Positions 6,048 to 62,388 of a DNA stretch of 64,000 nucleotides are shown here, in pieces. The translations under genes and the position numbers were made by a program. The stretch's first letter is position 1; every line of letters starts with the position of its first letter. The stretch lies in NCBI GenBank assembly GCA_001001555.1, contig LCKS01000002.1, positions 7,074-71,073 on the forward strand. The letters are read 5' to 3'. Source of the stretch: Candidatus Amesbacteria bacterium GW2011_GWC2_45_19 (lineage in GTDB: Bacteria > Patescibacteriota > Microgenomatia > CAZETR01 > Amesbacteraceae). The notes under the pieces are model-generated. The model made no database searches, was not told the DNA's origin, and saw only the letters and a program-made list of their open reading frames with translations.

Positions 6048-6852
6048 CTACAACGTCAAGAAACTGCTTCTTGACTGTTTAGCTTCTATCCCAAAACATC
6101 TGGATTGGGAAGTCATCGTTGTGGACAACGCCTCAAGCGATGACTCTGGCACCGCGGTTAAACACCATTTTCCATTTGTCGCGGTCGCGCAAAACGACAA
6201 AAACTTAGGTTTTGCTGCTGGCAACAACGTTGGCATTAAAAAATCTGTCGGCCAATATATTCTTTTATTAAACCCCGATACTATCGTTTACCCCAACACT
6301 ATAGAAACCGTTCTCAAATATATGCAATCTCATCCTAAAGTTGGCGCGGCTACCTGCCGGGTAGAACTCCCAGACGGTTCTCTCGATTATTCCTGCCATC
6401 GCCATTTTCCCGATCCCATCGGTTCTTTTTTACACCTGATCGGTCTGCGTCACCTTTCTAAATATTCCTCAACCCACGTTCCAAACGCTATTCATGAAAT
6501 CGACGCTCTCGTTGGCGCCTTTGCCATGATCAGAAGAACTGCCGGCGATCAGGTTAGTTGGCTGGACGAGGATTATAAATTTAACGGCGAAGACATCGAT
6601 TTTTGTTACAAATTAAAAGAAAAAGGCTGGAAAGTGATGTATATTCCGGACGTCAAAACTACTCATTTCAAGGGCTCATCTGTCCGGGCTATCCCAGCCG
6701 GCCGCCGCTGTTGGGCTGTCAACTCGACAGACGCCATGCGTCTTTTCTACAGCAAACACCTGGCCGCAAAATACCCCTTCTTTGTAAACTGGGCTGTTTA
6801 CCTGGGTATCAAAGTTCTTGAGATTTTTAGAACGATGGGAGCTTATTTTTAA
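6028..6852 (+). CDS. glycosyltransferase family 2
   Basis: LSIIILSYNVKK...VIVVDNASSDDS...GNNVGIKK...LLNPDT signature of GT2. ORF begins at 5995 but ATG at 6028 (MKTLSII) is the likely start. Confidence 0.8.
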   Translation: MSIIILSYNVKKLLLDCLASIPKHLDWEVIVVDNASSDDSGTAVKHHFPFVAVAQNDKNLGFAAGNNVGIKKSVGQYILLLNPDTIVYPNTIETVLKYMQSHPKVGAATCRVELPDGSLDYSCHRHFPDPIGSFLHLIGLRHLSKYSSTHVPNAIHEIDALVGAFAMIRRTAGDQVSWLDEDYKFNGEDIDFCYKLKEKGWKVMYIPDVKTTHFKGSSVRAIPAGRRCWAVNSTDAMRLFYSKHLAAKYPFFVNWAVYLGIKVLEIFRTMGAYF

Positions 6853-6854
6853 GT

Positions 6855-6915
6855 ACCTCACCCCAGCCCTCTCCTAATTTAGGAGAGGGGGATCCGCCGC
6901 AGTGGAGGGTGAGGT
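6855..6915. repeat. nested palindromic element (ACCTCACCC..CCCTCTCCTAA-TTT-AGGAGAGGG..GGGTGAGGT), intergenic copy of the CCCTCTCC hairpin family
   Basis: Perfect about 10-bp inner stem and 9-bp outer stem read directly from the sequence; related copies at 36106-36170, 42968-42990, 61479-61533. Confidence 0.8.
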
Positions 6916-6926
6916 ATAATTTAAGC

Positions 6927-7994
6927 ATGGGTCGGATTATTTGTATTGACGCCAGGTTGTGGGGAATTAGGCACACCGGAATAGGCCGCTATGTAGAGAA
7001 TCTTATTGATAATTTACCTGGCGAAGTAATACTTATCGTTCCGCCCGATCTGAAAAACGAGCCCAAGTTGGCCAAATTTACCAAATATTACGCCCGTTTT
7101 CACCCCTACTCTTTCTTAGCCCAGCTGGAAATGCTGTGGATTCTGTCTTTTATCAGGCCAGATTTACTGCACGTTCCCCACTTTACGATTCTCGTCCTTT
7201 GGCCCGGCAGAATGGTCGTTACCATTCACGATTTAATTAAACACATTTCCAAAGGCCATGACACCACCACCCGCCATCCCCTTCTTTACTGGCTAAAGTA
7301 TTTTGGATATTTAATTATTGTCTGGCTGGCCGTGCACCGGGCCAGCCATATTATTGTCCCGGCCAAATACTGGCGGGACATCTTAATCAAAAAATACGGT
7401 CTAAATCCAGCCGAAATCTCTGTCATCTACGAAGGAGTAGCTCAAACATTTTTGGGTGACTCTTTAAAGGAGACTCCTTTCAAGAGTATCCCAAGGCCGT
7501 TTGTGGTTTATACGGGAAATTTGTATCCTCACAAAAACATTCTGGTTCTTATCCGAGCCGTAGAACTAGCTAAAGTAAACCTGGCCATCGTCTGCGCCCG
7601 CTCGGTTTTTGCCGACCGCCTTCCCACTTCGCCCCGGGTGTTTTACTTAGGTCAACTAAGTGATGAACAGCTGGTAGGTCTTTATCAGCAGGCTGCAGCT
7701 TTCACTTTCCCCTCATTAATAGAAGGATTCGGTTTGCCGGGCCTGGAAGCTATGGCGGTGGGTTTACCGGTCATTGCCGCCCGGGCCTCCTGTTTGCCGG
7801 AAATTTACGGAGACGCGGCTTTGTTTTTTAGTCCTCACGATCCCGTAGATCTGGCCGATAAAATTCAAAGCCTGCTCATCGACAAAAAACTGCGCGAAAT
7901 GCTAATTGCTAAAGGCCAAATGCAAGTTAAAAAATACTCCTGGGCCACTATGGCCGCCCAAACATGGGAGATTTACCAAGCCGCATCGCGTTAG
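6927..7994 (+). CDS. glycosyltransferase family 1 (GT4)
   Basis: EGFGLPGLEAMAVGLPVIA motif. ORF extends to 6909 (GTG) but that lies inside the palindromic element; ATG at 6927 preferred. Confidence 0.8.
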   Translation: MGRIICIDARLWGIRHTGIGRYVENLIDNLPGEVILIVPPDLKNEPKLAKFTKYYARFHPYSFLAQLEMLWILSFIRPDLLHVPHFTILVLWPGRMVVTIHDLIKHISKGHDTTTRHPLLYWLKYFGYLIIVWLAVHRASHIIVPAKYWRDILIKKYGLNPAEISVIYEGVAQTFLGDSLKETPFKSIPRPFVVYTGNLYPHKNILVLIRAVELAKVNLAIVCARSVFADRLPTSPRVFYLGQLSDEQLVGLYQQAAAFTFPSLIEGFGLPGLEAMAVGLPVIAARASCLPEIYGDAALFFSPHDPVDLADKIQSLLIDKKLREMLIAKGQMQVKKYSWATMAAQTWEIYQAASR

Positions 7995-9121
7995 TTTACG
8001 ACCGGGTGAATAAGTGGGGCGGGGCGGAGAGAGTACTATTGGCTCTTCATGAAATGTTTCCCGGCGCTCCCCTCTACACCGCCGTCTATAACCCCGCAAC
8101 TGCAGGATGGGCTAAAGTTTTTTCTCAAGTTATTCCTACTTTCTTACAAAAATTTCCTTTTGCCAAATCCAATCATGAACTCTACCCCTGGCTTACCCTC
8201 ATCGCCTTTGAAACTCTGAAATTTGACGATTATGACATAGTTATTTCTGTCACTTCTGCCGATGCTAAGGGAATTATTACCAAACCCGGAACCTTTCATC
8301 TATGTTATTGTCTCACTCCCACCCGTTACTTATGGAGTCATAGTGAGTCGTACCGTAATGAGTTGGGAGTAGTGGGGAAAGTATTAACCACTCCATTGTT
8401 TAATTATTTAAAGTCCTGGGATTTAATCGCTTCCCGCCGCCCCGACGCATATGTCGCTATTTCAAAAACAGTCCAATCGCGGATCAAAAAATATTACCGC
8501 CTGGATTCGCAAGTAGTATACCCACCCGTAGACGTCGAACTTTTTAGTCAACCAATTACTATGAACCATGAACTAATAACTAACAACTTCTTCTTGTATG
8601 TGGGCAGATTAGTGGCTTACAAACAAGCCCAGCTCTTAGTTGAAACTTTTAATGATCTGAAATTGCCGTTGGCTATTATCGGGACAGGATCACTTGAATC
8701 AAAACTCAAAGCCATGGCCGCTCCCAACATTCGCTTTCTTGGGCAAGTGGCTGAAACCGAATTGCTTGTCTATTATCAGCATGCGCGGGCGGTTTTGTTT
8801 ATTCACGAGGAGGATTTTGGCCTGGTGCCGGTCGAAGCCCAGGCTGCCGGCACCCCGGTTATCGCCTTAAACCGCGGCGGGGCCAGTGAGACGGTGATTC
8901 ACGGGCAGACAGGTTTGCTGCTTGATAGCGTGTTAGATCTTAAAAATGCTATTCTTAACTTTGACCCTACTCAATTTGACCGGGAGTTTATTAAATCCCA
9001 TGCCCAAAAATTTGCCAAAGACAGATTCAAAAGAGAATTTGAGAGAGCACTTGTACGTGCTTATTCTGGCCGGCGGCGGCGGCACCCGGCTGTGGCCCCT
9101 TTCCCGCGAAAATTCTCCTAA
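7964..9121 (+). CDS. glycosyltransferase family 1 (GT4)
   Basis: N-terminal GGAERV and C-terminal EEDFGLVPVEAQAAGTPVIALNRGGASETV motifs; 3' end overlaps manC in another frame. Confidence 0.8.
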   Translation: MGDLPSRIALVYDRVNKWGGAERVLLALHEMFPGAPLYTAVYNPATAGWAKVFSQVIPTFLQKFPFAKSNHELYPWLTLIAFETLKFDDYDIVISVTSADAKGIITKPGTFHLCYCLTPTRYLWSHSESYRNELGVVGKVLTTPLFNYLKSWDLIASRRPDAYVAISKTVQSRIKKYYRLDSQVVYPPVDVELFSQPITMNHELITNNFFLYVGRLVAYKQAQLLVETFNDLKLPLAIIGTGSLESKLKAMAAPNIRFLGQVAETELLVYYQHARAVLFIHEEDFGLVPVEAQAAGTPVIALNRGGASETVIHGQTGLLLDSVLDLKNAILNFDPTQFDREFIKSHAQKFAKDRFKREFERALVRAYSGRRRRHPAVAPFPRKFS

Positions 9122-10103
9122 ACAATTTATCAAGCTTTTTGACGGCAAATCTTTACTGCAGCTGACGGTCGGGCGGGCCGTCGAGCTAGCTCCTCCAGAC
9201 CGGATATACGTCTCCACTTCCGCGAAATATGTCTCTGAAATAAAAAAACAGTGTCCCAGAATAAAGAACGAGAACATCATTGCCGAACCTCAACGTAAAG
9301 ATACCGCTATTGCCCACGGCCTCGGGGCCGCCTATATTTATCACCAGAACCCTGAAGCCATAATTATTAATTTAGCCTCCGACCATCTAATTTCACCCGT
9401 CTCCGGTTTTGTTAAAGATATTCTAACCGCTGTTGAATTTGCAGACCAAAATAAATTCGTCACCGTCGGTATTAAGCCCAAGTTTCCCCATACCGGCATG
9501 GGTCACATCAAATTTAAAGGTCATGTAGGCCTCAAATTTGTTGAGAAACCCCCCCTCGATCTGGCTAAAAAATTCACAGCCTCCGGAAATTATTTATGGA
9601 ATGCTAACCTGTATGTCTGGAAAGCCAAGTTATATCTGGATCTCCTCAAAAAACACGCTCCCAAAACTTATTCTTTTTTCCCCAGAATCATAAATAGCAT
9701 TGGTACCGACAAAGAAAAAGAGATAATTCAACTGGCTTTTCAAATGGCTCCCAGTATTTCGGTAGATTATGCGGTTTCGGAAAAGGTCACCAATTTTGTT
9801 TGTATCACCGGACATTTTAACTGGTCAGATGTGGGAGATTGGAACGTGGTTTGGCAAAACCTGCCCCAAGACGCCGCCGGCAACGCTGTCGCGGGCAGCC
9901 GGGGGAGAGGCGAGTTAGTCGGCCTCAATTCCCAAAACAATCTATTTATTTTAGACAAACAGCTCATCACATTGGTCGGGCTTTCGGATATGGTAGTTGT
10001 AGATACGCCGGACGCTATCCTCATTTGCCCCAAAGACAACGCCCAGGCCGTCAAACAGCTGCATCAAATACTTAAGGAGCAAAAACTGCTAAAATACTTG
10101 TAA
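9000..10103 (+). CDS. manC: mannose-1-phosphate guanylyltransferase (GDP-mannose pyrophosphorylase)
   Basis: LILAGGGGTRLWPLSRENSPKQF nucleotidyltransferase signature plus C-terminal cupin-less ManC-like domain. Start uncertain (ATG 9000, TTG 9051 or GTG 9057; ORF opens at 8946). Confidence 0.8.
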   Translation: MPKNLPKTDSKENLREHLYVLILAGGGGTRLWPLSRENSPKQFIKLFDGKSLLQLTVGRAVELAPPDRIYVSTSAKYVSEIKKQCPRIKNENIIAEPQRKDTAIAHGLGAAYIYHQNPEAIIINLASDHLISPVSGFVKDILTAVEFADQNKFVTVGIKPKFPHTGMGHIKFKGHVGLKFVEKPPLDLAKKFTASGNYLWNANLYVWKAKLYLDLLKKHAPKTYSFFPRIINSIGTDKEKEIIQLAFQMAPSISVDYAVSEKVTNFVCITGHFNWSDVGDWNVVWQNLPQDAAGNAVAGSRGRGELVGLNSQNNLFILDKQLITLVGLSDMVVVDTPDAILICPKDNAQAVKQLHQILKEQKLLKYL

Positions 10104-34971: not shown

Positions 34972-35773
34972 AGGTATTGATGATGACCAGGTTGTATTGG
35001 CCCCATGTAGGTGGAGTAGAGAAGCATGTGGAGAAAATAACTGAAATTTTGAAAAAGAAGCACCAAATAACTATTGTTTGTGAAAAACACGATCCCAAAC
35101 TGCCAGATTATGAAAATGATAGGGGAGTGATAATTTACAGAATTGGGGGATCGGACAAATGGGCCATTTGGAAATGGTGGTTTAGGCATTTGAACCTCAT
35201 AAATGACGCAGATATTATTCACATTCACGACGTTTTCTTCTGGTTTTTACCATTTAGACTCCCCTACTGGTTCAAAAAAGTTTTTATCACTTTCCACGGC
35301 TGGGAAGGCATATACCCCCTGCCCCGGAAAAACATAATTGTTCGTAAATTCAGCGAATGGATGGCCAATGGCAATATCTGCGTAGGTGAATTTATCAAAA
35401 AATATTATGGCACCAAATCCGATTATGTCATCTATGGAGCGGCAGAAAAAATCAAATACCCAAAAGTAAAAAGGCAAGGGGCAATTTTTGTGGGCCATCC
35501 GGACGCGGATCAAGGGCTGGATTATTACTAAAATTGGATATATTCACCGACGATCCCGATGCCGGCAAATATTTTTATAAATACAAATACGCTTTTGTCT
35601 CCGGTTATTTATCTATTCTTGAAGCTATGGCTCAAAATACGCCGGTTTTTACCCATTATGACAATCCGCTAAAATACGACTATCTAAATATGACACCGTT
35701 TAAAGACAAAAATTTTAAAATACCCGGCTGGTTAGAAGTAGCCGATATTTACGAAAAACTATGGCAAAAATGA
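34956..35773 (+). pseudogene. disrupted GT4 glycosyltransferase (N-terminal Glyco_trans_4 fragment 34956-35531 plus frameshifted C-terminal fragment 35534-35773, middle missing)
   Basis: YWPHVGGVEKHV N-domain motif in the first ORF, SGYLSILEAMAQNTPVF C-domain motif in the second ORF in a different frame; combined 270 aa vs about 370 expected. Confidence 0.5.
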
Positions 35774-36738
35774 CCGAACGCACAAGGAGAGACCTTGTGC
35801 GCGTGACGGTGGTGGTTACGGTTTTGAATGAAGAAGCCACAATCAAGTTTCTTTTGGATGCTTTGATTAGACAAACCAGAAAGTCCGATGAAATTATTAT
35901 CGTCGACGGCGGGTCAACAGATCGCACCGTGGAAAAGATTAAGAAATATAAAGAGATTAAGTTACTAAGAAAATCTGGAAATAGGTCGGTAGGCAGAAAT
36001 TACGGCATGAGCCAGTCTAAGGGCAACATCATCGCCTTTACCGACGCTGGTTGCATCCCCGAACTAAATTGGCTCGCAGAACTAATTAAACCTTTTTATA
36101 AAAAACTCCCCTCTCCTGGCCAACGGCCCGAGCGAAGCGAGAATTTAGGAGAGGGGCAGGGGGTGAGGTACGGGAGAGTGGAGGTTGTTTCTGGCTACTA
36201 CAAAGGTCTTTCTCAAAATATTTTTGAGAAATGTTTGGTCCCTTATGTCTTGGTCATGCCGGATAAAATCCCGGCTGAATTTTCCCCTTCCACCCGCTCC
36301 ATGGCCATGCGCAAAGGAGTGGGACTCTTCGATGAAAAGCTAAGCCATAACGAAGACTATGCTTTTGCCGTGGCGTTGAGAAAAAAAGGCCTGGAATTTT
36401 ATTTCGCCCCCAAAGCAATGGTGGGCTGGATGCCGTGTAAAAATTTGCGCCAGGCGGCCTGGATGTGGTTGCGCTTTGCCATAGGCGACGCCCAGGCCGG
36501 AATTTTGCGCCCCAAAGTCAAACTCTTATTCCTGCGCTATTATGTATTTTTCTTCCTCTTTTTCCTTAATCACTTATTTATCTTAATCTCTTTTCCCTAC
36601 TTGCTTTGGGCCGTGGCTAAAAATTACCGCTACGTCAAAGATCTGCGGGCGTTTTTCTGGCTGCCCGTACTGCAGCTGACTACGGATATGTGCGTCATAT
36701 TTGGTACTATTATGGGAGTCTTGTCCCGATCTAAATGA
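35761..36738 (+). CDS. glycosyltransferase family 2 (carrying an in-frame palindromic-element insertion)
   Basis: VTVVVTVLNEEATIKFLLDAL...IIIVDGGSTDRT...FTDAGC GT2 motifs; 36106-36170 element encodes LPSPGQRPERSENLGEGQGVRYG. Confidence 0.75.
   Translation: MAKMTERTRRDLVRVTVVVTVLNEEATIKFLLDALIRQTRKSDEIIIVDGGSTDRTVEKIKKYKEIKLLRKSGNRSVGRNYGMSQSKGNIIAFTDAGCIPELNWLAELIKPFYKKLPSPGQRPERSENLGEGQGVRYGRVEVVSGYYKGLSQNIFEKCLVPYVLVMPDKIPAEFSPSTRSMAMRKGVGLFDEKLSHNEDYAFAVALRKKGLEFYFAPKAMVGWMPCKNLRQAAWMWLRFAIGDAQAGILRPKVKLLFLRYYVFFFLFFLNHLFILISFPYLLWAVAKNYRYVKDLRAFFWLPVLQLTTDMCVIFGTIMGVLSRSK
36106..36170. repeat. CCCTCTCC hairpin-family element inserted in frame in a GT2 gene
   Basis: CTCCCCTCTCCT ... AATTTAGGAGAGGGG ... 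GGGTGAGGTA shares the AATTTAGGAGAGGG and GGGTGAGGTA blocks with the 6855-6915 copy. Confidence 0.7.
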
Positions 36739-39768: not shown

Positions 39769-41447
39769 TTATCGTCAAATACCGGGCGGCCGCAGAATTA
39801 GCTGCTTGTTTACCCAGTCTGAAAAAATATCATGTCATCATCGTCGACAACGACAAAATAAACCGGGGTTATGCCGCCGGCAACAATCTGGGGGCTAAAA
39901 GTGCCAAAGGGGAATACTTGCTCATTCTCAATCCGGACACGGTCGTTTCCCCCGGCGCCATCGAATTATTAGCCACTTTTCTGGACACTCATCCCCAAGC
40001 CGGAATTGTCGCTCCGTTTCTTCTTGACCCAGCCGGCCGGCCCTATCCTTTGCAAGGCACCCGGGAGCTCACGCCCCTCACTGGTCTGGTCGCTCTCTCG
40101 TTTCTGAACCAGATTCCTAATCCCATTTCCCGCCATTACTGGCTGGCCGATTGGGACAAACGCCAGCCGCGCCAAGTAGACGTCGTCCCCGGCACAGCTT
40201 TTCTTATTCGCAAGCAAATTTATGACCAACTCGGCGGATTCGATGAAAACTTCTTCCTCTATTTTGAAGAAGCCGATCTCTGCCGCCGTGTCCGGCATGC
40301 GGGCTGGGAAATTTACATGTATCCGCCGGCCAAAATTATGCATTACTGGGGCGCCAGTACCCCAAAATCTGCCCGTATCCAGGCCATTTTCTCCGCTTCC
40401 CGTTTTTACTACTTTCGCAAGCATTTCGGCCTGCTTTGGGCCATCGTAGTCCATCTCGTTTGTTCTTTTTCTCTCCTCTGGCTGGCGGTTATTTTAGGAG
40501 CCGCCCTGCGTTTCTACCGGTTTCCTGGCCTTATGCCCTTTATCGGCGACCAGGCCTGGTACTATTTGGCCGCCCGCGACGCTCTTCTGGGCGGGAGATT
40601 GCCCTTGTTGGGCATCACCGCCAGCATCACCTGGCTACATCAAGGCCCACTTTGGACTTATCTCCTGGTTCCCTTGATTGCCCACCCCGTCCTCCCAGCC
40701 ATCCTGACCTCAATCATGGGCGTGGTCTCCGTTTATTTAATTTACTTCCTAGGTGGCTGGCCAGCCTCTCTGCTATTAGCCGTTCTGCCATTAGCCGTTC
40801 TCCAATCCCGCATGCCCTACCACACATCTCTCATTCCTCTATTTTCTATTCTCTTTCTCCTATTTTTACGTCGTCATAAAGATTTCCTCGCCGGCCTCTT
40901 CCTCGGCTTCCTCTATCAATTGCACCTGCTCACATTCATCTTCTGGCCAATTATGTTTTGGCGCCGCCGCCTCATCCCCGGTTTTATTCTGGGGATTCTC
41001 CCTTTTTTACTAGTGGGACCAGTCCAAACATTTGGAATTCTCGCCTGGATCGCCAAGCATTCTCTCGCCGGTTTCGGCGGCTCCACCATCTCCACAGCCT
41101 ACCTCGTCGTCCTCCTCGTCCCCGCCATCCTCGTTGTCTCTTGGTTTCTCAATCGCCTTCCAAAGTTTATCGGGATTTTGATAATTGTGATTTATTTGGG
41201 ATTTAGTTATTCGAATTTAGATATTGGTTCATCTTTATCTAGCAGAATCGTTCTATCTAAAGCAATTTTGAGGGAGAGCGGCACTGACGCTCCGGAAATT
41301 GTCATGTCCGGTCCCGGTTCCAAATTTCGCTCCTACTCCATGCCCTACGAATACCTCGTCTGGTGGCTGTCCCGTTCCACCTCTCCAGAGGGCTCTCACA
41401 CAAAATTCCTTATCCATGAGTCCTCTCAAACTTTCGAACAGCTTTGA
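39747..41447 (+). CDS. GT2 glycosyltransferase fused to a C-terminal polytopic membrane domain
   Basis: N-terminal VSIIIVKY...DNDKINRGYAAGNNLG...LLILNPDTVV GT2 core then about 300 aa hydrophobic domain. Confidence 0.7.
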   Translation: MPSRVSIIIVKYRAAAELAACLPSLKKYHVIIVDNDKINRGYAAGNNLGAKSAKGEYLLILNPDTVVSPGAIELLATFLDTHPQAGIVAPFLLDPAGRPYPLQGTRELTPLTGLVALSFLNQIPNPISRHYWLADWDKRQPRQVDVVPGTAFLIRKQIYDQLGGFDENFFLYFEEADLCRRVRHAGWEIYMYPPAKIMHYWGASTPKSARIQAIFSASRFYYFRKHFGLLWAIVVHLVCSFSLLWLAVILGAALRFYRFPGLMPFIGDQAWYYLAARDALLGGRLPLLGITASITWLHQGPLWTYLLVPLIAHPVLPAILTSIMGVVSVYLIYFLGGWPASLLLAVLPLAVLQSRMPYHTSLIPLFSILFLLFLRRHKDFLAGLFLGFLYQLHLLTFIFWPIMFWRRRLIPGFILGILPFLLVGPVQTFGILAWIAKHSLAGFGGSTISTAYLVVLLVPAILVVSWFLNRLPKFIGILIIVIYLGFSYSNLDIGSSLSSRIVLSKAILRESGTDAPEIVMSGPGSKFRSYSMPYEYLVWWLSRSTSPEGSHTKFLIHESSQTFEQL

Positions 41448-41465
41448 AGGGCCACGCCTTTTTGA
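41446..41465. repeat. REP-like palindrome (left flank of RAYT): GAAGGGCCACGCCTTTTTGA
   Basis: Inverted copy of 42168-42200; core AAGGGC-CAC-GCCTTT hairpin. Confidence 0.75.
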
Positions 41466-41477
41466 TATAGTTAGACC

Positions 41478-42167
41478 ATGCCAGCCAAAAATACCAGAAA
41501 ACAATTCATAGAAAACTCTTATTATCATATTTACAACAGAGGAGTCGAAAAACGGCAAATATTCATGGACGATATGGATTATTCAGTATTCATTTCATAC
41601 TTAAAAAGTTACTTGCTGCCCAAAAGCGAAGAGTTTTTGCACGGCATATTTTCAAATGAAAGTTCGACACCCAAGCAAAAGGCCGACGCCCTCAAACTAT
41701 TAAGGCTTAATAATTTCTCTGAGACAATTTCACTCACTGCCTACTGCCTGATGGGTAACCATTTCCATTTTTTGGTTAAACAAACTATGGCAGACGGTAT
41801 TGATAAATTCATGAATTCGTTGATGACTAGGTACACCATGTATTTCAATCGCAGACACAAGCGGGTCGGCCATTTGTTCCAAGGAAATTACAAAGCAGTA
41901 TTGGTCGAGACTGAAGCGCAGTTACTGCACCTCACCCGCTATATCCATCAAAATCCAGCCTCGAAAGGCCACGCCTTTCAAACTCATCCATACTCATCCT
42001 ATCAACAATATGTTTCGTCAGCACGCCTCGAATGGATAAAACCAGATGAAGTTCTCAACTATTTTTCCAAGCAAGGCTTTAATTCATACGCAGCTTTCGT
42101 TGGAGATACTCATATTTACGATTCTTTGATGATCATCTCCGGATTAACTTTAAGTGAATCAGACTAG
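41478..42167 (+). mobile_element. REP-associated tyrosine transposase (RAYT, IS200/IS605 TnpA-like HUH Y1 enzyme)
   Basis: YHIYNRGVEKRQIF, HUH motif YCLMGNHFHFLV and catalytic-Tyr region RYIHQNP; flanked by inverted REP hairpins; contains one REP copy internally (41963-41983). Confidence 0.8.
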
Positions 42168-42200
42168 ATCAAAAAGGCGTGGCCTTTCAAACCTTTCAAA
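42168..42200. repeat. REP-like palindrome (right flank of RAYT, inverted orientation): ATCAAAAAGGCGTGGCCTTTCAAACCTTTCAAA
   Basis: Reverse complement matches 41446-41465 with one mismatch; AAAGGC-GTG-GCCTTT hairpin. Confidence 0.75.
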
Positions 42201-42225: not shown

Positions 42226-42978
42226 ATGTTAACTGGGATTGTGCTCACTCATAACGAAGAGAAGAATATTGCCCGGTGTTTGGAATCCTTAAAATTTTGC
42301 GACGCGGTTTTAGTGGTTGACAGCGGTTCAACAGATAAAACCATGTCTTTGGCCAAAAAAGCCGGAGCCACAGTTGTTAACCATCCTCTGGATGGCAACT
42401 ATGCTGCCCAGCGCAATTGGGCTCTCTCCCAAGCCAAAACTCCCTGGGTGTTATTTGTGGACGCCGACGAAATGGTTTCCGTCAAATTGGGCGAAGAGAT
42501 CACATCCGCCGTCAAAAAAATCGAATACAAAGGGTTTTTAATCCCCCGGATAGATTACATGTGGGGCAAGAAGCTGTCCCACGGAGACGTGGGCGGAGCT
42601 AGATTCTTGCGTCTAGCCCGCCGCGGAGCCGGCGAGTGGCACGGCGCGGTTCATGAAACCTGGGCCATCGAGGGCAACATAGGGACACTCAAGCACCCCA
42701 TCTTTCACTATCCTCACCCTACTCTAGTTGAGTTCTTGCAAGAGATTAACCGCTACTCTTCCATCCGGGCCCAAGAACTCCACCGCGCTGGCCAGCGGGC
42801 CAATTTATTCCAAATCATTCTTTACCCATCGGCCAAATTTTTGTGGCTTTGGATTTGGAAATTGGGATTTGCGGATGGTACCACCGGTTTTGTCCACGCC
42901 ATGACCATGGCCTTCTACAGTTTCCTGGTTAGGGGTAAACTATGGTTATTTCAAAAAGGAGTAACGTCCCCCTCTTAA
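42226..42978 (+). CDS. glycosyltransferase family 2
   Basis: IVLTHNEEKNIARCLESL...VVDSGSTDKT...FVDADE GT2 motifs. Confidence 0.8.
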   Translation: MLTGIVLTHNEEKNIARCLESLKFCDAVLVVDSGSTDKTMSLAKKAGATVVNHPLDGNYAAQRNWALSQAKTPWVLFVDADEMVSVKLGEEITSAVKKIEYKGFLIPRIDYMWGKKLSHGDVGGARFLRLARRGAGEWHGAVHETWAIEGNIGTLKHPIFHYPHPTLVEFLQEINRYSSIRAQELHRAGQRANLFQIILYPSAKFLWLWIWKLGFADGTTGFVHAMTMAFYSFLVRGKLWLFQKGVTSPS

Positions 42979-42990
42979 GGTAAGAGGGGG
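42968..42990. repeat. perfect hairpin CCCCCTCTTA-agg-TAAGAGGGGG overlapping the GT2 stop codon (CCCTCTCC family variant / terminator-like)
   Basis: 10-bp perfect stem, 3-nt loop read from sequence, followed by GGGGGTG as in other family members. Confidence 0.7.
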
Positions 42991-43005
42991 ATCAGAGGGG
43001 GTGTT

Positions 43006-44148
43006 ATGAGCGGTTGGATTGCAATTTTGCTGGCTTTGGGTTTTGCTTTCGGCAACCTGTATAAATTTTCATTCTTTTCAGCCGAGGTGCGTATTTCAGC
43101 CCTGGATATCGTGGTTTTTACTCTCACTCTTCTGGCATTACCTGTAAATCTCAAAAAATACCGGTATTTGGTCATCCCCATCACCGTTTTTTTCACAGTC
43201 GGTTTAGTAAGTCTGATTTTTGCCCTTCCCGCCTACGGTTGGCAGGCAATTTTCGTCGGATCCATGTATTTAACCCGTTGGACTGTCTACAGCCTATTTT
43301 TTGCTTCAATAATTCAATTAATTAAATCGTCCAAGATCGTTCACTTATTGTACTCGTTAGGCATAATCACGGCTATTTTGGGATTGGCCCAATATTTGGT
43401 TTTCCCGGATGTCCGGGCTCTAGCTGTAGCCGAATGGGACCCCCATTATTTCCGGGTGGTCGGTACCTTCCTCGATCCCGGTTTCACAGGTTTAATTTTG
43501 GTTTTCACTCTCATTTTTTTAACACTGAATCCGCTCAAAAATCGCTTAATTAACTTAATTTCTTGGTCTGCTTCATATCTTGCGTTTGCCCTGACCTACT
43601 CCCGCAGCAGCTACGCCGCTTTCCTGGTTTCCATGACCTATATCGCTTGGCGCCGCAAGTCGCTTAAATTTTTTTTATTTATAATTATTCTGTTCCTCAC
43701 CACTGTCTACGCACTACCCCGTTCACCGGGTGGGGAGGGCGTAGATTTAGAGCGCACCAGCTCCATCCAGGCTAGAATTGACAGCTGGACCACCGCCTGG
43801 AGGATTTTTACCCGGCATCCCGTTTTGGGAGTGGGTTTCAACACCTACCGCTATGCCCAGGGAGCCAGCCTCACATCCCACGCCGGAGCCGGCGCCGACT
43901 CCTCGCTACTCTTTGTAGCCGCCACCACCGGCCTGGCGGGCCTGCTGGCCTATCTCTGGTATATTAAACGGCTTTTTTCCTTAATTCCTAACTCCTATCT
44001 CCTGGCTCTTCTGGTCCACTCTATATTTTTAAACTCCCTCTTTTATCCCGCCGTTATGGTCTGGATAGCTCTACTTCTTTCCGTGTCTGATTCCCCGCCC
44101 GGTCAACCGTCACCAGCACCAGCACTTTCTCGTCGGGATTCAAATTGA
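43006..44148 (+). CDS. O-antigen ligase/polymerase-like membrane protein (Wzy_C family)
   Basis: Polytopic; loop motif RIDSWTTAWRIFTRHPVLGVGFNTYRY typical of Wzy_C. Confidence 0.6.
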   Translation: MSGWIAILLALGFAFGNLYKFSFFSAEVRISALDIVVFTLTLLALPVNLKKYRYLVIPITVFFTVGLVSLIFALPAYGWQAIFVGSMYLTRWTVYSLFFASIIQLIKSSKIVHLLYSLGIITAILGLAQYLVFPDVRALAVAEWDPHYFRVVGTFLDPGFTGLILVFTLIFLTLNPLKNRLINLISWSASYLAFALTYSRSSYAAFLVSMTYIAWRRKSLKFFLFIIILFLTTVYALPRSPGGEGVDLERTSSIQARIDSWTTAWRIFTRHPVLGVGFNTYRYAQGASLTSHAGAGADSSLLFVAATTGLAGLLAYLWYIKRLFSLIPNSYLLALLVHSIFLNSLFYPAVMVWIALLLSVSDSPPGQPSPAPALSRRDSN

Positions 44149-44827: not shown

Positions 44828-45095
44828 CTGCGCCTCGTCCTCGCAGAGCGAGAGACGGGCGGCACAAACTTATGTATACCGTCTACGTTTTAAAAAGTCT
44901 GAAAGATGGAAGGAAAATATTAGAAGAACCAAACAATTCTATATCAGTCGATGATTATATAGCCGCCAGATGGGGAGAAAAAAAGCATGTAGGTCAGTCT
45001 ACCCCCACTGGGTTGAAGTAGACACACCAAACAAAATTATCATTGTCACCCGCATCAAGCACTGTAAAGACGTGTACAGATAGCACAGATAGCAG

Positions 45096-45120
45096 CTTTG
45101 AAAGGCCACGCCTTTCAAAG
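45096..45120. repeat. REP-like palindrome CTTTGAAAGGC-CAC-GCCTTTCAAAG
   Basis: Perfect 11-bp arms; same family as RAYT flanks; overlaps the stop region of the 45115-46248 gene. Confidence 0.8.
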
Positions 45121-56065: not shown

Positions 56066-56139
56066 TGGAGCGGGATACGGGAATCGAACCCGCTTCTTCT
56101 GCTTGGGAAGCAGATATACTACCGGTGTACTAATCCCGC
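56066..56139 (-). tRNA. tRNA-Gly (anticodon CCC), CCA encoded
   Basis: Reverse-complement fold: acceptor GCGGGAT/ATCCCGC, D-arm GTAC-ACCGGTA-GTAT, anticodon stem TCTGC/GCAGA loop TTCCCAA, T-arm GCGGG-TTCGATT-CCCGT. Confidence 0.8.
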
Positions 56140-56379
56140 ATTTAGTAGTTTTTTCAAAGCCTCGCCACCTTTGTAGGATTTTATCATCTTTTCTCTGGCT
56201 AAAGCTTCACTATATGTCTCATACTGCTCAGAATAAATTAATTTCCAATTTCCTTTAGCATAACGAGTTGAAGTAGTTTTTCCCCGATTGTGTTCAGCCA
56301 GTCGTTTTTCCAAGTCAGAAGTACAACCGATATATCTCCGGTTTGAAAGTATATTTTGGATAATATAGGTCCAAAACAT
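56119..56379 (-). CDS. small GIY-YIG nuclease (stand-alone catalytic domain)
   Basis: MFWTYIIQNILSNRRYIGCTSDLEKRLAEHNRG...KGNWKLIY...E motif set of GIY-YIG domain. ORF extends to 56412 through a hairpin; 3' end overlaps tRNA-Gly by 21 nt. Confidence 0.7.
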   Translation of the reverse strand: MFWTYIIQNILSNRRYIGCTSDLEKRLAEHNRGKTTSTRYAKGNWKLIYSEQYETYSEALAREKMIKSYKGGEALKKLLNAGLVHR

Positions 56380-56409: not shown

Positions 56410-56434
56410 CATACTACCGGTGTACTAATCCCGC
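56410..56434. repeat. 25-bp perfect direct repeat of the tRNA-Gly 5' portion (other copy 56116-56140)
   Basis: ATACTACCGGTGTACTAATCCCGCA occurs twice, bracketing the GIY-YIG ORF. Confidence 0.9.
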
Positions 56435-56469
56435 ACTTCGACTCCGCTCAGTGTAAACTATTTTACAAC

Positions 56470-60546: not shown

Positions 60547-60561
60547 TATGTCAAACTAGGT

Positions 60562-60584
60562 CAAAAAGGCCACGCCTTTCAAAA
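60562..60584. repeat. REP-like palindrome CAAAAAGGCCACGCCTTTCAAAA
   Basis: Same GGCCACGCCTTTCAAA core as RAYT flanks; intergenic between helicase and polX. Confidence 0.75.
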
Positions 60585-60609: not shown

Positions 60610-62388
60610 GTGATGGACACCAGCCGCCACATGACCAATTTGCAGGTTGCCAAGCTGCTGCGAGCCGTTGCTGCCGCAATAGAATTGTCGAGCGGAGACA
60701 ACAGATTCAGAATCGTGGCGTATCAGCGGGCAGCAGATGCCATCGAACATTCCAGCAGCGAAGTTAAAGACCTGTGGGACGACGGCAATCTTAAGGAGTT
60801 GGCGGGCGTGGGTGAAGCCATCGCCGGACATCTGGATGAATTGTTCAAGACGGGCAAAGTTAAACATTTCGAAGCTATTCTCAAACCATTTCCTCCAGCT
60901 TTGTTTGAGCTAATGGAGGTACCAGGAATAGGTCCCAAGACCGCCCTTAAGTTCAGTAAAGAACTCGGTATCACCCGCGCCCACTCCGCCATACCAGAAC
61001 TCCTCAAAGCCGCTAAAAAAGGCCGTATCGATGAACGGTTTATAAAGGCCATCGAGGAATATCAGGGCCGCTCCAGACGCTTGCTTCTGGATGTAGCCCA
61101 AACTATTGCCGATTCAATTGTAGGCTGGATGCGCAAAAATCCTCACGTGCGGGAGGCAAACACCCTGGGCAGTCTGCGCCGCCAGGCATCTACCGTAGGA
61201 GATATCGATATCGCCGTCGCTTCTGATCATGCCAAAGAAGTTATCGAACATTTCACTAAATATCCCCATAAATCCCGCGTTCTTGAAGCAGGTGTTCATA
61301 CTGCCTCCCTCATCCTCCCGAACGAATACCAAGTCGACCTCATGGTCCAGCCTCCGGCCGCCTATGGGGCTCTCCTGCAGCACTTCACCGGTTCCAAACA
61401 CCACAACATCAAACTTCGTGAATACGCCCTCAAAAAAGGCTACTCGCTCTCTGAATACGGTATCACCCCCCGTCCCAGTACCTCACTCTCTAATCCCTCT
61501 CCTATAATAGGAGAGGGACGAAAGGGAGAGGTATTATCATTTCCTACGGAAGAAAAATTCTACAACTTTCTCGGTTTAGACTGGATTCCCCCCGAACTGC
61601 GCGAAGGAGAAAATGAAATCGAATTAGCCAAATTACACCAACTACCCAAATTGGTTGAGCTTTCTGACATCAGGGGTGATTTACAAATGCACAGCGACTT
61701 TAACATTGAGCCGTCTCATGATTTAGGGTTAAGTAGTGTGGATGAGTTGTGTGATAAGGCTAGGGAGTTGGGATATGAGTATATAGGAATCACCGACCAC
61801 AACCCGGCTGTTTCCGGTCATACCCAGGCTCAAATTCTGGATTTAATCAAAAAGAGGACAGAAGTTATTCAATTTCAAAAACGAGCAATTCATGTATTCA
61901 ATAGCCTGGAAATTGATATTCAACCCATCGGCAAGCGGGCCCTACCTGACGCAGCGCTAGAACTACTTGATTATGCTTGCATAGCTATCCATAGCAGCTT
62001 TCGTCTGTCTCGAAAAGCTATGACCGACCGGGTTTTATCCGCCCTGGACCACCCCAAAGTAAAATTTTTCGCCCATCCTACAGCCAGGCTTCTGGGTCAG
62101 CGCGAAGGGGTGGAATTAGATTGGGACCGGATTTTCGACTTCTGCGTCCGGAATCATAAATGGCTGGAGATTGACGGTTGGCCAAATAGATTGGACCTGC
62201 CGGATGTAGTGGCCAAAGACGCCATTAAATACGGAGTTAAATTAGTGGTCGATACCGACTCTCACGCCGCCGGGCAATTAGTTTATATGCGCTACGGCGT
62301 TTCCGTTGCCCGCCGCGCCGGAGCCGCTAAATATGATATTATTAACACAGGTTCTCTGAAGGAGGTGATTTCATGTCTTACCAAATAA
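60610..62388 (+). CDS. polX: family X DNA polymerase (PolX: pol-beta-like core + C-terminal PHP domain) carrying an in-frame palindromic-element insertion
   Basis: HhH GIGPKTALKF, catalytic GDIDIAV, PHP histidines (GDLQMHSDFN, ITDHNP...); 61479-61533 element encodes ...SLSNPSPIIGEGRKGEV... in the interdomain linker. Confidence 0.8.
   Translation: MMDTSRHMTNLQVAKLLRAVAAAIELSSGDNRFRIVAYQRAADAIEHSSSEVKDLWDDGNLKELAGVGEAIAGHLDELFKTGKVKHFEAILKPFPPALFELMEVPGIGPKTALKFSKELGITRAHSAIPELLKAAKKGRIDERFIKAIEEYQGRSRRLLLDVAQTIADSIVGWMRKNPHVREANTLGSLRRQASTVGDIDIAVASDHAKEVIEHFTKYPHKSRVLEAGVHTASLILPNEYQVDLMVQPPAAYGALLQHFTGSKHHNIKLREYALKKGYSLSEYGITPRPSTSLSNPSPIIGEGRKGEVLSFPTEEKFYNFLGLDWIPPELREGENEIELAKLHQLPKLVELSDIRGDLQMHSDFNIEPSHDLGLSSVDELCDKARELGYEYIGITDHNPAVSGHTQAQILDLIKKRTEVIQFQKRAIHVFNSLEIDIQPIGKRALPDAALELLDYACIAIHSSFRLSRKAMTDRVLSALDHPKVKFFAHPTARLLGQREGVELDWDRIFDFCVRNHKWLEIDGWPNRLDLPDVVAKDAIKYGVKLVVDTDSHAAGQLVYMRYGVSVARRAGAAKYDIINTGSLKEVISCLTK
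61479..61533. repeat. CCCTCTCC hairpin-family element (ACCTCAC..CCCTCTCCTAT-a-ATAGGAGAGGG..GGGAGAGGTA) inside polX
   Basis: Block-by-block match to the intergenic 6855-6915 copy. Confidence 0.75.

Follow-up and report, generated by a model that had tools for sequence, protein, structure and literature searches.

Probable BoxC/PIT/TM triplex-motif repeats between genes and in frame within genes of a Candidatus Amesbacteria bacterium

Four short repeat elements are found in a 64 kb stretch of the genome of Candidatus Amesbacteria bacterium GW2011_GWC2_45_19; the whole of this stretch is termed the window here. The elements are most probably BoxC/PIT/TM repeats, whose units would be copied or converted whole and would survive between genes or in permissive protein loops. 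The triplex-motif class itself is already known and is pan-bacterial. New with respect to the literature searched are the in-frame copies that are translated, and hot spots at which there is evidence that units are copied whole; neither the presence of the motif in bacteria of the candidate phyla radiation (CPR) nor its presence within coding sequences was found in that literature.

The E. coli repeat has been named in turn BoxC, PIT, for potential intrastrand triplex (Hoyne, Edwards, Viari & Maher, 2000), and TM_ECO (Holder et al., 2015, PMC4666352), in a literature that comprises the work of Bachellier in the 1990s, Hoyne et al. (2000), Hoyne & Maher (2002) and PMC4666352. TM_ECO has the sequence CCCTCTCCC-TGT-GGGAGAGGG-CCG-GGGTGAGGG and represents a class II intrastrand triplex motif (PMC4666352). 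The isolated strand forms a stable triplex as judged by CD and NMR, and a triplex was not detected in vivo (PMC4666352). TM_ECO loci are hypervariable, 'palindromic' doublets decay to hairpins and a link to a transposase is absent; PIT elements of E. coli also lack promoter and terminator activity (PMC4666352). Besides E. coli, the motif is documented for Synechocystis and for many further bacteria; the E. coli copies are purely intergenic, and evidence of mobility was not found there (PMC4666352).

In the window, the order of parts is a pyrimidine arm (Y), a loop, a purine arm (R), a second loop and a mirror arm (H), which, read from the sequence, is that of a predicted class II intrastrand triplex motif (Table 1). 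A purpose-written finder that requires an all-pyrimidine arm of at least 8 nt, its perfect complement and a mirror arm with 8 perfect triads returns exactly four loci from the 64 kb, and 0 from 100 dinucleotide shuffles. A relaxed version returns the same four loci, with a shuffle mean of 0.1. The proposal in the initial annotation that the four sites form a real family is borne out by this search. Shared sequence blocks, which it had also proposed, are present at three of the sites in the form of an exact core, CCCTCTCCT-N-AGGAGAGGG (6867-6889, 36109-36155 and 61495-61517). These three are the only copies of the core in the window; zero matches are found in 100 shuffles and 0 are expected by chance. 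The fourth site, 42967-43006, reads CCCCCTCTTA-AGG-TAAGAGGGGG-TCAG-AGGGGGTGTTA; it has the same three-domain architecture but lacks the blocks.

Table 1. Predicted triplex motifs of the window and their parts
Feature	Position	Strand	Parts	Basis
Intergenic 'palindromic' triplex motif (site 1)	6854..6916	.	H' = TACCTCACCC 6854-6863; Y = CCCTCTCCTA 6867-6876; loop ATT; R = TAGGAGAGGG 6880-6889; 17-nt spacer 6890-6906; H = GGGTGAGGTA 6907-6916	Motif finder, folding
Composite triplex motif, in frame in GT2 gene 35761-36738	36107..36170	+	Y = CCCCTCTCCT 36108-36117; expanded 29-nt loop 1 = GGCCAACGGCCCGAGCGAAGCGAGAATTT 36118-36146; R = AGGAGAGGGG 36147-36156; loop 2 = CAG; H = GGGGTGAGGTA 36160-36170	Finder, orthologues, AF2
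Triplex motif of another subfamily (site 2)	42967..43006	+	Y = TCCCCCTCTTA; loop AGG; R = TAAGAGGGGGA; loop 2 TCAG; H = AGGGGGTGTTA	Finder, ORF positions
Probable remnant of older minus-orientation triplex motif	61461..61472	-		Comparison with L003
Palindromic triplex motif, in frame in PolX 60610-62388	61479..61533	.	H' = TACCTCACTCT (one mismatch); Y = TCCCTCTCCTAT 61494-61505; R = ATAGGAGAGGGA 61507-61518; loop 2 = CGAA; H = AGGGAGAGGTA 61523-61533	Finder, orthologues, AF2

A G/T-rich tail lies 3' of all three core hairpins, as GGGTGAGGTA at site 1 and in the GT2 copy (6907-6916 and 36161-36170) and as GGGAGAGGTA in the PolX copy (61524-61533). The reverse complement of the tail is found 5' of two of these hairpins, where it forms the left arm (6854-6863 and, with one mismatch, 61479-61488). 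The tail mirrors the purine arm: each G faces a G, and each A faces a T or an A. In the GT2 copy the R arm is 5'-AGGAGAGGGG and the tail 5'-GGGGTGAGGT; at site 2 they are TAAGAGGGGGA and AGGGGGTGTTA. This pairing fits the rule for a purine-motif (reverse-Hoogsteen) third strand, with G*G:C, A*A:T and T*A:T triads. The initial annotation had described the tail, which is present, but had overlooked the mirror relation that defines the family. Its left block, ACCTCAC, is the mirror arm that belongs to the other strand, and the unit therefore resembles a long palindrome. Long hairpins result when the 'palindromic' copies are folded as single strands of DNA (z = -4 to -6.5); that of site 1 has a folding energy of -21.7 kcal/mol (z = -6.5).

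Published descriptions of the class have stems of 6-15 nt, at most one mirror mismatch and short loops (1-6 nt in ITxF, 0-10 nt in Hoyne, and 3 nt for loop 2 of TM_ECO). At all four window sites the all-pyrimidine arms are 10-12 nt long with perfect complements, and each mirror arm has 9-10 consecutive allowed triads. Loops are short in the minus-strand reading of site 1 (3 and 3 nt), at site 2 (3 and 4 nt) and in the PolX copy (1-3 and 4 nt). Loop 1 of the GT2 copy, of 29 nt, and loop 2 of the plus-strand reading of site 1, of 17 nt, exceed the limits of published triplex finders. Read on the minus strand, site 1 has the compact canonical form CCCTCTCCTA-AAT-TAGGAGAGGG-CTG-GGGTGAGGTA. Units are 39-64 nt long across the window sites, and the motif is multi-copy, with four loci per 64 kb compared with 0 expected.

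The mirror arm covaries with the stem. In the fetched loci, 1.3 Mb in total, 140 hairpins with other stems and an asymmetric purine arm were compared; 32 of them are followed by a perfect 9/9 mirror arm, 4 have a direct repeat and 0 a mirror arm upstream. Examples that obey the mirror rule are CCTTCTCCC...GGGAGAAGG-tta-GGATGAGGG and TCCCCCTTT...AAAGGGGGA-tca-AGGGGGATT. The length of loop 2 is sharply peaked at 3 nt (157 of 297 motifs), as in TM_ECO. Mirror-arm covariation, the loop 2 peak and the multi-phylum spread described below together indicate a family that is defined by structure and is not lineage-specific.

With TM_ECO the window elements have in common the domain order, stems of ~9-11 nt, a loop 2 of typically 3 nt, near-identical cores (CCCTCTCC / GGAGAGGG / GGGTGAGG), 'palindromic' doublets with a mirror arm on both strands, several dispersed copies, hypervariable loci with deletion remnants and the absence of a transposase association. 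They differ in that the arms are extended by T/A (CCTA / TAGG / GGTA), the loops of some copies are enlarged (29 nt, 17 nt) and the host is a CPR (Microgenomates) bacterium. In addition, window copies are found in frame within genes, whereas those of TM_ECO in E. coli MG1655 are 'always intergenic'. The strict TM_ECO pattern, CCCTCNCCC N3-6 GGGNGAGGG N3 GGGNGAGGG, is not matched by the window sequences CCCTCTCCT / AGGAGAGGG / GGGTGAGGT; the ninth position of each arm differs, with T/A/T in place of C/G/G. By this comparison of sequences the window copies are assigned to the class as a sister subfamily and not to TM_ECO proper. In vitro triplex formation is known only for the E. coli relative TM_ECO, and by analogy the triplexes of the window are predicted ones.

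The exact pattern CCCTCTCCT-N-AGGAGAGGG-N-GAGGTA was scanned in one genome per GTDB species, and at least 120 loci carry it. The 131 elements among the matches listed are found in the CPR (Ames-, Gottesman-, Nomura-, Moran- and Saccharibacteria) and in Chloroflexota/Dehalococcoidia, Cyanobacteria, Melainabacteria, Bacteroidota, Ignavibacteria, Acidobacteriota, Acinetobacter, Coxiellaceae and others. The portion of the tail not forced by the scan pattern (GGGGT) is near-universal among these listed matches. The pattern is also found in 33 IMG/VR viral contigs. About 10 of the 131 listed elements lie within long open frames, such as those of RluA in Plectonema and an NB-ARC protein in Anaerolinea, and candidate in-frame copies in other phyla are in unrelated proteins (e.g. 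NadB-like, FemAB, NB-ARC, RluA and a membrane GT). A link to DNA polymerases, considered since PolX and DinB are carriers, was rejected as a coincidence of small numbers, as the hosts in other phyla are unrelated proteins.

Several loci carry two to three near-identical triplex motifs together with identical flanks: L020 (Segetibacter, 75-431), L010, the viral contig L164 (4360-7452), L078 and L111. Spacing is ~110-2,060 bp, and ~160 bp in L020, L078 and L111. The sequences suggest that the motif appears there as part of a larger repeated unit.

The position of the window elements relative to genes is largely as initially annotated. Site 1 is intergenic; it fills the gap between a TAA stop codon at 6850-6852 and the next likely start, the ATG at 6927. 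Its GAGG is 13 nt from that ATG, too distant to argue for a Shine-Dalgarno role. The element near 42968-42990, site 2, does overlap a stop codon, as it supplies the last three codons and the TAA (42976-42978) of a GT2-family gene, 42226-42978. The last base of site 2 doubles as the A of the start codon ATG (43006) that opens the next gene, 43006-44148, and from its position, 5 nt from this ATG, the G-run is a plausible Shine-Dalgarno sequence. Copies in the GT2 and PolX genes lie, as proposed, in intact reading frames that continue through them, and encode LPSPGQRPERSENLGEGQGVRY and STSLSNPSPIIGEGRKGEV, respectively. Orthologue alignments, in which most proteins have short loops, show both segments to be lineage-restricted insertions, and both lie in surface loops, as low-pLDDT coils in otherwise confident AF2 models. 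The PolX insert was, however, misplaced: it is not in the linker between the pol-beta core and the PHP domain but within a beta-hairpin of the thumb domain.

The window PolX is 100% identical to the PolX of Microgenomates group bacterium GW2011_GWC1, which places the source in the CPR. The PolX loop is a 7-amino-acid beta-hairpin turn (GIK-VKDKLR-QF) in its modal form and reaches at least 14 amino acids in 31 of 115 orthologues. Compared with the solved Thermus thermophilus PolX (PDB 3AU2), the window protein has 17 extra residues. In the AF2 model, with an overall pLDDT of 91, these form a coil at pLDDT 57-70, below 50 at the centre. Long loops translate different subfamilies of the motif: PSLKLREGRGVSY, PPLNLRGGNPQERV and LPSPNLGEGTGVRY, in addition to the query STSLSNPSPIIGEGRKGEV. 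The DNA of six relatives displays a range of states. L002 is empty, L001 has the same unit as the window and L006 has a deletion remnant; L003, L004 and L005 carry other subfamilies at differing insertion nucleotides and in either orientation, that of L003 being the subfamily of window site 2. L003 is nearer to the window than L001 is, yet its unit is of a different subfamily and in opposite orientation. Between the window and L001 the element is 94.7% identical (third positions 100%), compared with 70% (43%) for the rest of the gene.

Upstream of the present PolX unit, the remnant listed in Table 1, TATCACCCCCCG, provides codons for I-T-P-R and corresponds in sequence to the H domain, ATCACCCCC, of the copy that L003, the closest relative, carries intact on the minus strand. 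The ATCACCCCCC sequence beside the unit, coding for I-T-P, is on this comparison the probable mirror arm of an older L003-type unit. A different repeat-like peptide, HPERSEGSSLDSSPAERGQNDRS, is found at the same loop in PolX orthologues P0044 and P0064. Its PERSE core resembles the nested loop insert GQRPERSEN of GT2, a likeness that hints at PERSE-type peptides as another small element family.

The majority of GT2 orthologues have the sequence KPFSDP-KVQ-VVSGYY without the segment, and a minority have LPSP(K/R)LGEGxGVRY. In the query and in P0122, GQRPERSEN is added inside the hairpin loop. The insert is a disordered coil in the AF2 model (overall pLDDT 90; ~55-70 in the insert and below 50 at its centre). 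Element identity between the window and L127 is 97% (third codon positions 95%), compared with 72% (53%) in the rest of the gene. A second G-rich block, CGGGAGAGTGGA, follows the GT2 copy at 36171-36182, with equivalents TGGGGGGGTGGA in L127 and CTTGGGTGTGGAA in L130; judging by its sequence, it looks like another degenerate mirror arm.

A search of the fetched loci with the 24-nt loop insert recovers the GT2 copies only. In JGI/ENA metagenomes, the composite unit with the odd loop GGCCAACGGCCCGAGCGAAGCGAG is present at one further locus, on the Microgenomates-like contig L131, where it is in frame and in opposite orientation within the gene of DinB, a Y-family polymerase. DinB orthologues are empty (GRTFCLSL-DGFWA), or have a compact unit (LYLTPNPSPNLGEGHY), the composite unit or deletion remnants (LYL-GEGHY). 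A phmmer search with the 32-amino-acid composite peptide against 1.84 billion representative proteins returned a spurious TPR/CHAT protein only and is uninformative on other in-frame sites. Further variants occupy the same loops in GT2 orthologues P0148, P0177, P0193 and P0201, and also in P0160 and DinB P0251; these comprise another subfamily, PLIPLLSKEREGRRPGEV, and units with different expanded hairpin loops, HPSPTAKTRARGEKLGERMGVRY and LNPSPNFSQVRGFTVGEGHY.

The presence of the composite unit in both GT2 and the unrelated DinB points to units that are copied or converted as wholes. The 24-25-nt piece has the same loop position in both, and relatives of both genes carry compact units; its sharing by two unrelated genes suggests either the overwriting of one unit by another or a small insert directed at these loops. 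In L004, L131 and the window, the copies of a genome are alike in their stems, subfamilies being genome-specific, and filled and empty orthologues are interspersed in PolX and GT2 NJ trees, which were built with loops masked and not bootstrapped. By their series of sequence states, the PolX, GT2 and DinB loops are putative hot spots of recurrent gain, replacement and deletion in Microgenomates. Motifs beyond the chosen sites are rare in the relatives, with two loci, both intergenic (L004 and L131), in ~130 kb. Given this low density elsewhere, the enrichment in three protein loops exceeds what random insertion plus tolerance alone would give. The high occupancy may come from selection that disfavours imprecise deletion, from recombination among populations or from a preference for targets in the region. 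Compact units have one stop-free frame per orientation, with TAA or TAG in the loop in the other frames, which accounts for the invariable PSP...GEG reading. The GT2, DinB and PolX junctions have no visible target-site duplication. As neither this nor an enzyme nor a clean empty/filled pair of near-identical strains was found, the term copied or converted is used here and not transposition in the strict sense.

An alternative without mobility, in which the elements originated or persisted locally through old insertions, recombination of gene segments between populations and structural selection at the DNA level, is considered improbable. It would account for the motif at the same loop in many orthologues and for the likeness of the codons that flank the GT2 copy in the window and L127, and recombination would mix filled and empty alleles in trees; indeed, part of the pattern could come from homologous recombination of gene segments between populations or from motif-to-motif conversion. 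However, insertion points, orientations and subfamilies differ in the PolX loop, subfamily stems are common to the copies within one genome, and the composite unit in two unrelated genes is identical even in loop sequence that the stems do not need. The loop insert is conserved as well as the arms are, which structural selection alone would not predict.

To about the same low degree, it is conceivable that the motifs are REP/REPIN-type elements mobilized by a Y1 (RAYT-like) transposase whose gene lies at 41478-42167 of the window. Enzymes of the Y1 type have single-stranded hairpins as substrates and leave no target duplication. Like REP sequences, the triplex motifs are short, GC-rich, imperfect dispersed palindromes without visible target duplications, and one lies ~800 bp downstream of the Y1_Tnp gene. 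A Y1 orthologue with 63% identity (8571-9257) is ~1 kb from the intergenic motif of L004 (7558-7611); the proximity in these two cases, as read from the two loci, may be coincidence. The Y1 gene is flanked, however, not by triplex motifs but by a different palindrome family, AAAGGCCACGCCTTT, with GGCCACGCC as core. REPs lack the mirror arm. They are defined by a GTAG or CGTC end tag (PMC3733652), which the triplex motifs, with ends TACC...GGTA, do not carry. The E. coli motif has no associated transposase (PMC4666352). A tblastn search with the window Y1 protein of ~1.2 Mb of motif loci from other phyla gave zero homologues, the L004 orthologue being the sole match overall.

The second palindrome family, with core AAAGGCCACGCCTTTCAAA, is at 41439-41465, 41956-41982, 42173-42192 (inverted), 45093-45119 and 60557-60583 in the window. 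It brackets the Y1 transposase gene, which is IS200-like and of RAYT type, in a REPIN-like layout; one copy is within the Y1 coding sequence and another between a DEAD helicase gene and PolX. A further feature is the segment 48001-56000, with a G+C content of 0.37 compared with ~0.47 elsewhere and with reversed skews, which ends near a tRNA-Gly (56066-56139). A 28-nt direct repeat (56116-56143 / 56411-56438, 96% identical) overlaps this tRNA. The segment may have been acquired as an island, or may be the scar of an integration.

Rickettsia palindromic elements (RPEs), to which the elements were initially likened, are AT-rich and 100-150 bp in length. To our knowledge, they are restricted to Rickettsia and have no mirror (triplex) arm, and a sequence resemblance would not be expected. 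The likeness holds as an analogy of behaviour: window elements are selfish-looking palindromes in frame as extra surface peptides, also found between genes, and those in intact genes are lineage-specific segments. It does not extend to RPEs as families of 100-150 bp confined to Rickettsia, as the window units are 39-64 nt and have a mirror arm. That the elements form a distinct RPE-like selfish palindromic class, new for this lineage, is quite unlikely. In-frame, lineage-restricted insertions in surface loops would fit such a class, and a scan of the window at the Rfam gathering threshold matched four tRNAs only and nothing at the triplex-motif sites. On the other hand, the exact pattern occurs in many phyla, and the architecture and the nearly identical sequence are those of the published BoxC/PIT/TM motif, so that the claim of a class distinct to the lineage is abandoned.

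Miniature inverted-repeat elements (MITEs; Correia/NEMIS) and the small dispersed repeats of cyanobacteria are small, non-autonomous, can nest and are occasionally found in reading frames, and in these respects the window elements are similar. MITEs are characterized by terminal inverted repeats together with target-site duplications and a parent IS element, whereas none of these is seen for the window elements. Outer inverted arms are present in the 'palindromic' copies only, and the junctions, which were compared without an empty site of the same lineage, have no visible duplication.

A reading of the segments not as inserted DNA but as functional peptides under conservation, or as a hairpin that regulates at the RNA level (terminator or attenuator), is hardly credible: orthologue peptides are similar (PSPxLGEGxGVRY) and the hairpins stable, but the segments are missing from the majority of orthologues and from the T. 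thermophilus PolX of solved structure, form low-confidence coils, are found in both orientations relative to the gene, have third codon positions conserved beyond what the protein requires and are not followed by a T-run, and E. coli PIT has no promoter or terminator activity (PMC4666352).

For BoxC/PIT/TM repeats copied or converted as whole units, the following course is proposed. The pyrimidine arm and its Watson-Crick purine partner would form a hairpin, whose purine arm is mirrored by the 3' G/T-rich arm, and two successive folds of the single strand could give an intrastrand purine-motif triplex (G*G:C, A*A:T, T*A:T). With a mirror arm on both strands, the unit would look like a long palindrome. 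Whole DNA segments would be copied, or one unit converted to another, probably via a single-stranded intermediate and by an activity that acts in trans. In a gene-dense CPR genome, copies would persist solely between genes or in permissive surface loops, where only the stop-free frame is possible, and would yield Pro/Gly-rich peptides such as PSPxxGEGxGVRY. A unit within a gene may be retained because imprecise deletion would harm the gene. Units would also destabilize their own site, giving rise to deletion remnants, replacements and loop expansions.

A wider generalization is offered tentatively, as a speculation of rather low probability. In this proposal BoxC-type motifs would be pan-bacterial elements propagated by their structure, no dedicated transposase having been found; units would be copied to new sites or would overwrite other units, their hairpin loops would gain small inserts, and essential genes (PolX, DinB, GT2) would trap units in their surface loops, which would become recurrent hot spots.

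BoxC/PIT/TM repeats have been known for ~30 years, yet neither their function nor the way they spread is agreed upon. The CPR data extend the family to the candidate phyla radiation and many other phyla, and indicate that the units are translatable as disordered loops in DNA polymerases and a glycosyltransferase. Whole units, including loop sequence that has no structural role, recur at unrelated loci and are conserved far above their host genes. Protein segments of the PSPxxGEGxGVRY type are best annotated as repeat-derived and not as conserved motifs. The PolX, GT2 and DinB loops provide a series of filled, empty, remnant and replaced alleles for tests of mobility and instability.
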